DNA from: a virus
Taxonomy: Duplodnaviria; Heunggongvirae; Uroviricota; Caudoviricetes
Reading direction: 5' to 3' (one strand)
IMG/VR virus record: IMGVR_UViG_2711768014_000012
Length of the DNA: 36,201 nt
A program made the position numbers. Shown here piece by piece: positions 29,501-32,500 of this stretch. The first letter of the stretch is position 1. The number at the start of each line of letters is the position of its first letter.

Positions 29501-32500
29501 TTACATAACTGAGTTTATGTAAGTCTTCATCATTCAGACGAGTGAGGGCTGGGACAGTAGCCATGATGGCAGCCTCCTTGATCGGTGAAATACTTCCACC
29601 ACCGGAAACGCCAATTTCGCTGGTGGTGAACTGAACGGGGTTGGCGTAACCGGTGATCAAGGAAACCGGCGCATCTTTCGATGCCCCCGCCCAGCCCACC
29701 ATAACTTTGATGTGAGCAAATGCGGACGATAAAAAAGACGCTGGCGCGTCATATATCGCCTTGATCAATTCCAGGACGCCAATCCCGGCACCCGCTTTAT
29801 AAGGTGCCTGAACAGTGTAACGTCCCGGAATGGCAGAATCAATGTGCTGGTGGTCCTTCACACTCAACAAAATCACGCCTGAATTTCCACAAAGGACTAA
29901 AGCACTCATGCGGGTAGTCTTTGCGAAGATAGATAACGCGCTGTGTTTCTGGCTCCCAACGAATAACATGAACATAAAGTCCTCTTCCGTCACGAAACCA
30001 GCGGTTAAGTTCCTGCACAACTCGCCCCCCACAGTCAGGTAAAGTTCTCTGTGGTTACTTACAGCCAGGTGATTTGGTAATCTGCATTCATGCCGTAACA
30101 ACAGGTGTTCAGCGACGCTGACCACCAGCTGTTGCGACAAACGGTTATTTGCCGTTAAACTGTTCATGCGTTAGTTTCTCCACAGACACAAAACGCCACG
30201 ACGCCCGGAGCTGCACACTCGCGGGCGTCACTCTTTTCTGGAGCGCAAAAGATTTTGTAGACCAGTGCTGCATGCTCCTGGAGCTTCGAAATTGACAGAT
30301 ACAACTCATCATTAATTGCTGTCTGCTCGTGTGGCTCCACTACCCCATCTTCGATTGCCGAACGAATCTGCTTTGAGTAACTCCCGATCTGTTCGATGAC
30401 TTCCAGCAGGCGCTGGTTTATATCGGCGTTCTCTACTTCCTCAATTTCAGGAAGCGATACAAACACCCCACCAGCAGACTGTGCGACAGCATCCGCAATG
30501 TAGTGAGTGCCAGCCGCGCGCTGTAAAATCATTGCCCATCCCAGCGGGAAAATCTGATCGCCATCTGCACGAAGGCGGTTGAATAAAGCGTTCTCTGTTA
30601 CATCCAGCCACTCAGCAGCTTCAGCGTAACCCCCCGGCAACGCCGCGATAGTTTTTCTGACAGCTTTCACGTACCACTCAGGCTGTTTTTCTACTTTCCA
30701 GTGATGCTTACCCACGGTTAGCCTCATCGTTCTGTGGTTAAAAATTGAAGGTGTTCTGTTAATCTTTCGGATAGATATCCGGTCTTAAGTCAGATTTCGT
30801 AATTGCACCTGACGTGCATTGCTCAAGTTTTTTAGCCAGCACAAAACTGGCTTTTTTATAACCATTGAAAACCAGCCGTAAGTAGCCTGGTGTTGAGCCA
30901 ACTTTTCCGGCCAACTCACCCTGCTGTTCTTTGGTTAAAGAGTCCCAATACGCTTTCATACAATATGTACCTCCGGTATACATATTACATGATTGAGATG
31001 AACCTTCAAGATACTTGTACCTTATCGGTACAAAGGTTTTAATTTCTTTATGAAAACAGTCCATGACATCCGGCGGTCTAACGCCAGAAAACTGAGAGAT
31101 GGTGTTGGCGGGAATTCTTCCTTTGCCACCATGATTGATCGCGAGCCAACCCAGACCAGCAGGTTTATGGGAGATGGTGCAACTAAAAATATCGGTGACA
31201 GCATGGCACGGCACATCGAAAAATGTTTCGACCTGCCTGTCGGATGGCTTGATCAAGAACACCAGACAACGAACATCACAAAAAAACCTGACGTTTCAAT
31301 CACTAACAAACAAATAACGTTAGTCCCTGTCATATCATGGGTACAGGCCGGAGCATGGAAAGAAGTTGGCTATTCTGAGGTTGATTTGAGCACAGCAGAA
31401 ACTTATCCCTGCCCTGTACCCTGTGGCGAAATGACTTATATCTTGCGGGTGATTGGTGATTCAATGATTGATGAGTACCGCCCGGGAGACATGATTTTTG
31501 TTGATCCTGAAGTCCCTGCCTGCCACGGTGACGACGTTATTGCATTGATGCACGATACAGGCGAAACCACCTTCAAGCGGTTGATAGAAGATGGAACACA
31601 GCGTTATCTCAAAGCATTAAACCCAAACTGGCCTGAGCCTTACATTAAGATTAACGGTAATTGCTCTATAATTGGTACAGTGATTTTCTCAGGAAAACCA
31701 AGAAGATACATAATAAAGGCCTAATCAATATTTATAACCTGCTTCGGCAGGTTTTTTTATACTTGACAATGTACCTTTGGGATACATAATGTATCTAAAA
31801 GAAACACAGCACAGGCAAGATTAAACAAAATTTGGTTGTAACACGGCGTATGGCACATGCGTCGTTAGCGGTCTGGGGACGTTAAAGGGGACAATCCACT
31901 CCTTGCTCGGGCAAACAAACCAGGTAGCCGGAATGTGCAAGTCAATGATGATGCTGATAAGACGCCTAACCAGCGTGGCGATTCGGTTTGACGCCTGGGA
32001 AGAGACCAGGGTGCAACGATGAGGACATTTATGGAACCGCGACAAAGTGTGGTGCCGTAACTGGCTAAGTGCTCTCAGCGTTGTGGTGAATGCGCAGGCT
32101 GATGCGCGAAAGACATTGCAGCTAATGCGGAAAAGAGCTGTTCGGCGGGGCAATTAAACGCCCGTGAGAGTCTGAAATAACCGCAAGCCGGAGATCAGCA
32201 CCGGTCACCACAACAGCCACTGCTTTGGCGGTACCAGTTTGTACACTTGCTTCCGGCTGGTACCGCTCTTTTTACAAAACAGAGAAGAGCATCACCGGAC
32301 GACGGGCTCATAACCAAATCCATCCGGGCGGCTGCCACCGCAGGTGTTCTTCTCTGTTTTGTGGAGAAACCAACCGACCTTGCAGGGTCGATATGATTAG
32401 GAGCAGCAAAATGGCTAGCGAACGCAGTACTGATGTGCAGGCATTTATTGGGGAGCTGGACGGCGGCGTATTTGAAACCAAAATCGGCGCAGTTCTCAGT

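Follow-up and report, generated by a model that had tools for sequence, protein, structure and literature searches.

A textbook-type immunity switch of the e14/SfV group in a lambdoid prophage: a putative five-site operator map and a predicted leaderless cI

Prophage e14 of Escherichia coli K-12 and the Shigella phage SfV carry the closest described relatives of the immunity switch that is the subject of this study. The switch lies in IMG/VR virus record IMGVR_UViG_2711768014_000012, the whole 36,201-nucleotide stretch of which was analysed and is referred to below as the window. It forms part of a lambdoid early-control region at ~29.3-33.7 kb and comprises a cI repressor gene, a divergent cro gene, the right operator region (OR) between the two and the left operator region (OL) beyond cI. 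The corresponding e14 genes run ymfT/croE, ymfK/cohE, ymfJ, and in a review table YmfK appears as an SOS-sensitive repressor, with CroE as a regulator of the croE operon (PMC8249747). For SfV, a 'putative operator region' is given in GenBank record U82619; it corresponds exactly to positions 30965-31033 of the window, i.e., to the outer edges of the sites designated A and C below.

Positions 30100-32300 of the window are 97.5-98.8% identical to DNA of phage cdtI, of Stx2c (Shiga toxin 2c)-converting phages, and of phages Ayreon, 2H10 and SfV. The segment 30940-31110 was found in 1324 of the 5426 complete E. coli genomes and is 96.5% identical in e14, while phages such as mEp460, which have a different cI and the same flanking modules, show no similarity across cI-OR-cro. 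With near-identical cro-OR-cI-OL DNA and the same sites, the switch belongs to the e14/SfV immunity group, which is also the outcome of the comparison with known immunity groups that an initial annotation of this DNA had proposed. We therefore regard the region, with a probability of roughly 0.85, as the immunity switch of an e14/SfV-type lambdoid prophage. The switch is of textbook type; the sites first noticed in it are confirmed and their interpretation as operators is supported, yet the arrangement was already known, and since near-identical copies in K-12 and SfV are annotated and partly characterized it must be called ordinary.

The two divergent regulatory genes are separated by a gap of 90 bp and flanked or overlapped by five candidate operators, which lie on the promoters of cro (pR), of cI (pRM) and downstream of cI (pL):

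30759-30959 (-): cro, 66 amino acids, YdaS-like helix-turn-helix protein, orthologue of e14 ymfT/croE
31050-31724 (+): cI repressor, 224 amino acids, Peptidase_S24 E=1.5e-26, orthologue of e14 ymfK/cohE
30965-30983: operator A (OR1-like), ATGTACC-TCCGG-TATACAT, 21.5 bits, arms conserved
30998-31016: operator B (OR2-like, weak), ATGAACC-TTCAA-GATACTT, 12.2 bits, over the pR -35
31015-31033: operator C (OR3-like), TTGTACC-TTATC-GGTACAA, 23.1 bits, perfect 7-bp dyad
31769-31787: operator L1, ATGTACC-TTTGG-GATACAT, 25.0 bits, filling the pL spacer and the start of its -10
31789-31807: operator L2 (weak), ATGTATC-TAAAA-GAAACAC, 12.6 bits, 1 bp past L1

Every one of these sites is a dyad of 7+5+7 = 19 bp, and their clustering is not expected by chance. 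When ATGTACC-N5-GGTACAT was sought with up to three mismatches, five matches were found in 36 kb against 1.08 expected, a number reached in none of 100 shuffles, and four of the five fall within a 0.85-kb region (30965-31787). A symmetric weight matrix was furthermore trained on sites A, C and L1 of relatives only, the window and its >97% relatives being left out. Its five best matches in the 36-kb window are L1, C, A, L2 and B, in that order and with the scores given above, so that B and L2, although outside the training set, rank fifth and fourth. A score of at least 12 bits has a probability of 2.2e-6 per position, which translates to ~0.0004 expected occurrences in the ~160 regulatory positions. 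The sixth match, at 34806-34824, was rejected as an operator, as its 4.5 bits are at chance level (the maximum in shuffled 36-kb sequences averages 6.8 bits, with a standard deviation of 2.9).

The sites were then compared with those beside related repressors. They are conserved in about 27 related enterobacterial loci. Scanning one genome per species brought up 24 loci beyond those of the phages, with a cI 61-99% identical to that of the window, from Escherichia, Atlantibacter, Pseudocitrobacter, Leclercia, Klebsiella, Phytobacter, Enterobacter, Pantoea, Trabulsiella, Kluyvera, Limnobaculum, Rahnella, Edwardsiella, Symbiopectobacterium, Serratia, Proteus and others, and the comparison set comprises 26 distinct OR and 29 OL sequences over the same range of cI identity. 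The operator motif adjoins every cI relative of at least 61% identity that was examined, in a dozen host genera, with the cross-genus consensus ATGTAyC-N5-GrTACAT. For example, Hafnia phage yong2 (cI 79% identical) and Edwardsiella phage EPP-1 (74%) keep all sites and differ in the central spacers. Among the 26 OR sequences the half-site arms are essentially invariant and the central 5 bp are free to vary; the five central positions of site C hold ~0.2 bit each and thus provide an internal control for simple relatedness. The positions are fixed as well: the OR sites are centred at -76 (A), -43 (B) and -26 (C) from the cI +1 in nearly all loci, the centres of L1 and L2 are 15 and 35 bp away from where the pL -35 begins, and all loci show the order terminator, TTGACA and L1, again with a free spacer.

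In all loci A, C and L1 are strong sites, and B and L2 are weaker. Site B reaches 6-15 bits in most relatives and stays under 6 in about nine distant ones, but its left half ATGAAC(C) is kept in all loci except a Proteus locus (L027), which has ATGTACC; this fixed T-to-A deviation suggests selection for a weak site or a second reader of the half-site. L2 scores 4-20 bits in ~20 of the 29 loci, the EPP-1 site being ATGTACT-TATAA-GATACAC, and is lost where the downstream module differs.

This map extends that of the initial annotation, which had described a shared operator architecture at OR and OL from three sites, at 30965-30983, 31015-31033 and 31769-31787. The sequences are read at exactly these coordinates and represent the strong sites found in every relative, but the total is five, B and L2 having been missed, and the motif as then written, ATGTACC-N5-GGTATACAT, would measure 21 bp instead of 19. 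The placing of the downstream site over the spacer of a consensus-like promoter proved accurate, with L1 filling the spacer of pL. A perfect palindrome, GATACATAATGTATC, had also been singled out; it is indeed present at 31781-31795, but does not constitute a separate element. The EPP-1 and yong2 sequences reveal a second OL site 1 bp past L1, and the palindrome is thus the junction GATACAT-A-ATGTATC between the right half of L1 and the left half of L2.

The promoter elements with which the sites coincide are the following:

30982-30987 (-): putative pR -10, TAATAT (CATAAT in more distant relatives), conserved in the alignment
31004-31009 (-): putative pR -35, TTGAAG, 16 nt from the -10, with the TTG conserved as CAAG on the plus strand
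31015-31020 (+): pRM -35, TTGTAC, 17 nt from the -10
31038-31043 (+): pRM -10, TTTAAT, conserved although its flanks vary, and at a fixed distance from the cI ATG (6 nt)
31763-31790 (+): pL, TTGACA (31763-31768)-16-CATAAT (31785-31790), 11/12 match to consensus, annotated as a promoter in phage Ayreon

Site A takes in the final 2 nt of the pR -10, the region where pR starts and the Shine-Dalgarno (SD) sequence of cro (GGAGG, minus strand), site C spans the pRM -35 and spacer, and L2, centred 20 bp from L1, extends over the end of the pL -10 into the region of the pL start. Several dyad-symmetric putative operators are accordingly found to overlap pR and pRM, with counterparts on pL beyond cI. 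The pL promoter is nearly invariant in the relatives, the exceptions being TTGACT in L027 and a 17-nt spacer in loci L024 and L025. Three alternatives for the pRM -10 were set aside: GATACT (31010-31015) has a -11 position that is not conserved in relatives, CATATT (30981-30986) is without a usable -35, and a frame TAATNN, which would place an A at -11, would move the start of transcription into or past the ATG, whereas TTTAAT is favoured by the start site mapped in e14.

Prophage e14 shares with the window all five sites, the terminator and the elements of pRM, pR and pL. The right half of its site A reads TGTACAT where the window has TATACAT, and one base differs in the spacer of C. In the SfV group (SfV, cdtI, the Stx2c phages, Ayreon, 2H10 and SfIV) the records are without an annotated OL operator; the Ayreon record annotates a pL promoter and a terminator, as found in the window, while SfV and SfIV, unlike the window, have an insertion after OL.

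The initial annotation had further proposed that the cI mRNA is leaderless, on the grounds that the candidate pRM -10 lies very close to the cI ATG and that no SD precedes it. Both observations hold. The predicted duplex with the anti-SD sequence is worth -3.4 kcal/mol for cI against -10.8 for cro, a contrast that is maintained in all relatives. Across the 26 sequences a -10-like hexamer ending in AAT or CAT stands 6-7 nt before the cI ATG (8-9 nt in two Symbiopectobacterium loci), and the bases between hexamer and ATG vary freely, with no SD there. Differential RNA sequencing has identified only five leaderless mRNAs in E. coli K-12, and ymfK is among them (Romero et al. 2014, PMC4681348); in its Table S3 the ymfK start site RVS_(I)-1202156 equals the gene start, 1202156, giving a leader of 0 nt. 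From -12 to +3 of ymfK/cI, one base, located between the -10 and the ATG, distinguishes the window from e14. Leaderless cI is thus already an experimental fact for a near-identical copy, and the A at 31050 is predicted to be the +1 of a leaderless cI mRNA in the window, which would place it in the class of leaderless repressor mRNAs with lambda cI, racR, dicA and ymfK. In the part of the Romero supplement consulted, no start sites were found for ymfT or ymfJ, which is consistent with, but not proof of, their repression in the lysogen.

The cI start appears to be mis-annotated in two GenBank records, being truncated by 39 codons in yong2 (locus L003, 1606 versus 1723) and extended by 22 codons through the operators in EPP-1 (locus L004, 1586 versus 1520). 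Both errors are likely due to the true start being without an SD.

The cI product is predicted to carry a LexA/S24 self-cleavage domain, with an Ala-Gly site and a Ser + Lys dyad. Its translation contains QAG (Ala-Gly), GDSM and TFKRL, the last of which aligns with the lysine motif FKKL of lambda, and its C-terminal half matches the C-terminal domain of lambda cI with E=1.8e-9. Residues 1-90 gave no Pfam helix-turn-helix match, and a single weak match was obtained, to the repressor of PDB 5d50 (E=0.0026). The cro gene is contained in an open reading frame (ORF) at 30759-31262 (-), its ATG at 30959 being preceded by GGAGG; the Pfam matches are YdaS_toxin (E=1.5e-5, under the curated cut-off of the model) and HTH_3 (E=0.0065). 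The gene is named cro in the SfV and cdtI annotations and ymfT in K-12.

From this layout we infer which protein binds which site and in what order, as follows. The cI protein, in which a presumed DNA-binding domain at the N-terminus would be joined to the LexA-like S24 domain for self-cleavage, would bind the 19-bp dyads as a dimer, and Cro would be expected on the same sites. Repressor on A and B would silence pR and with it cro and the rightward early genes. Since B at -43 is close to the position of lambda OR2 (-42), repressor bound there would probably also activate the intrinsically weak pRM (TTGTAC-17-TTTAAT), the transcript of which would start on the A of the cI ATG and be translated as a leaderless message. 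Occupancy of C would turn cI synthesis down at high repressor levels (autorepression) and allow Cro to turn pRM off, and L1 and L2, which cover the near-consensus pL from the spacer to beyond the start, would block this promoter. Cooperativity and OL-OR looping may contribute, and RecA-stimulated self-cleavage of cI would release all promoters.

It was considered whether the palindromes act at the level of RNA instead, as hairpins or terminators, with the stem-loop of site C and its T-rich run attenuating leftward-origin transcripts that enter cI. The terminator scan does list 31015-31033, as a 7-pair stem followed by AGGTTTTAAT, and a hairpin would also fit conserved arms with a variable loop. 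However, the arms are conserved in sequence, with no compensatory changes in the 26 sequences, and the half-site recurs at five places that include poor palindromes (A pairs at 5/7 positions, B and L2 are worse), all of them on promoter elements. In addition, only three of the seven pairs of site C are G-C, the T run of its tail is interrupted and is itself the pRM -10, and a terminator at this position would block cI expression from any upstream establishment promoter. Given the lack of covariation in the arms and the recurrence of the half-site in poor palindromes on promoters, the hairpin or terminator reading of site C was rejected as highly improbable. A role as boxes for a host regulator, LexA or TyrR, and not for the phage repressor, is suggested by the core TGTA-N9-TACA, which resembles the boxes of both. 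The LexA box is CTGT-N8-ACAG and the TyrR box TGTAAA-N6-TTTACA; the spacing here, TGT-N11-ACA, contrasts with TGT-N8-ACA for LexA, and TGTA-N9-TACA with TGTA-N10-TACA for TyrR. The motif is moreover confined to the neighbourhood of cI: nowhere else in the window does it exceed 4.5 bits, and it accompanies the cI relatives described above, whereas phages with a different cI, such as mEp460, are without similarity there. Spacing and confinement together make host boxes barely credible, and they were rejected.

A narrower alternative accepts only A, C and L1 as operators and takes B and L2 to be unbound, conserved as promoter elements or by recent descent. The two sites reach ~12 bits, the strong ones 21-25. 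What is conserved of B takes in the CAAG that is the pR -35 TTG on the opposite strand, and what is conserved of L2, its left half, lies partly on the -10 and start of pL. Against this stand their ranks and the ~0.0004 occurrences expected in regulatory DNA, the exact -43 position of B together with its near-invariant ATGAACC half-site, which no promoter element requires, and the occurrence of L2 as a good full site of 16-20 bits in Edwardsiella and Trabulsiella. We consider it unlikely, though still a possibility of some substance, that B and L2 go unbound.

Several further points weigh against the locus being an operator-controlled switch of the kind proposed here. In the literature searched, no binding, footprinting or mutational data were found for any member of the immunity group, nor were operator sequences found as text, and the published start-site mapping concerns e14, not the window prophage. 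B and L2 fall below threshold in about one-third of the distant loci, and the edges of B and C have 2 bp in common. The pR promoter is only an 8/12 match to consensus, -35 included, and for this reason went unscored in the consensus scan, while the pRM -10 (TTTAAT) is without the usual A at -11, where relatives have T, C, G or A. Finally, the highest-scoring OR site, C, sits on pRM, the opposite of lambda, where OR3 is weakest, and the order of occupancy may therefore depart from the lambda model. These points notwithstanding, an e14/SfV-type immunity switch is the reading retained.

The remaining features of the early-control region are:

29331-30167 (-): Ash-family gene, 278 amino acids, PF10554 E=1.3e-18
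30164-30727 (-): gene after cro, CII-like and of the CP76 family, with a match to Pfam Phage_CP76 ('regulatory protein CII') at E=8.5e-15
31736-31760 (+): intrinsic terminator after cI, found by the terminator scan, annotated in the SfV and Ayreon records and conserved in relatives
~590 nt after pL: pL leader, with no convincing ORF, followed by a gene cluster with DUF2303 (YfdQ-like)

The Ash-family gene goes under 'immunity region' in the SfV and Ayreon annotations, and that of cdtI calls it a 'putative antirepressor'. The CP76 match contrasts with the SfIV paper, according to which cII, cIII and N are absent from SfV, SfIV and SfII (PMC3851460). No tRNA was found in the window, and an Rfam scan of 30000-33000 at E<=1 returned no relevant match.

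A mosaic junction was observed right after OL, from ~31808 of the window onward and also in L003 (2472-2545), L005-L015, L019 and L023. The cI-OL module is followed by at least three types of leader: the window type, the 590-nt leader common to cdtI and mEp460; a 'CAGGCAGGACGCCCACGAAGTAGCC' type as in K-12 e14, where the sequence past OL reads CAGGCAGGACGCC... and leads to ymfJ; and tRNA-Gly(CCC) in yong2. As a result of the break, several loci are without the right half of L2.

Within the pL leader of the window, positions 31829-31945 (+) form a conserved non-coding element of ~115 nt which has never been annotated. It is 99-100% identical in cdtI, in mEp460 (a phage of different immunity) and in Stx2a/Stx2c phages, and ~87-88% identical in P1, P7, SJ46 and RCS47 and in phiV10 and TL-2011b, where it lies in intergenic DNA in the latter two. 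In the P1 family it is located directly 3' of a tRNA gene (annotated as tRNA-Ile in P1 and as tRNA-Met in RCS47) and upstream of ban (dnaB), and it occurs in 1818 of the 5426 E. coli genomes. The element holds a 10-bp hairpin (ACGGCGUAUG-GCA-CAUGCGUCGU) and a GGGG/CCCC hairpin with a variable loop; it gave no Rfam match, a fold z-score of ~0 on either strand and no two-sided covariation. In phages that are reported to be without N, it could serve as a functional signal, RNA or DNA, that has so far gone undescribed.

The position of C on pRM, a weak B at the OR2 position and two abutting OL sites 0.77 kb from OR mean that the wiring of the switch could differ from that of lambda; occupancy order, cooperativity and autoregulation could all deviate from the textbook model, as they do in Stx2 phage 933W. 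These more novel readings, of a switch wired unlike lambda and of 31829-31945 as an undescribed functional signal, seem to us quite doubtful.

The sites would define the immunity specificity, as the initial annotation had stated, of a prophage type found in about one-quarter of complete E. coli genomes; among its members are K-12 e14, SfV and SfIV (serotype-converting phages of Shigella), the cdt phage and the Stx2c phages. The operators would therefore decide the mutual exclusion among these phages and the way in which toxin-carrying prophages are released by SOS signals. The addition made here is small, consisting of the five-site map, the consensus and the fixed positions at OR, and could guide footprinting.

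The general plan is that of lambda, which likewise has divergent cI and cro genes, an S24 repressor with a homologous C-terminal domain, three dyad sites across pR and pRM, and a pL downstream of cI in the same direction. The geometry of lambda pRM, TAGATT + TAACGT (6 nt) + ATG, is also the same as that of TTTAAT + 6 nt + ATG in the window. The two differ in detail. The N-terminal domains of the two cI proteins show no detectable sequence relation, and the sites measure 19 bp with 7-bp arms (ATGTAyC) in the window and 17 bp (TATCACCGC-type) in lambda. Lambda OR1, OR2 and OR3 are centred at -66, -42 and -19 from the cI start, compared to -76, -43 and -26 for A, B and C, so that the OR centre spacings are 24 + 23 bp and 33 + 17 bp, respectively, and the best consensus match at OR lies on pRM in the window and not on pR. 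Lambda OL has three sites, that of the window two, and in the window OL and OR are only ~0.77 kb apart because there is no rexAB between them.

The other system with which the locus was compared is 933W. This phage is absent among the DNA matches to cI-OR-cro and looks like a member of a different immunity group, and its operators have footprinting data, of which none were found in the literature for the group of the window. It has three operators at OR and two at OL (review PMC8065619, citing Tyler et al. 2004), the same layout as that of the window.

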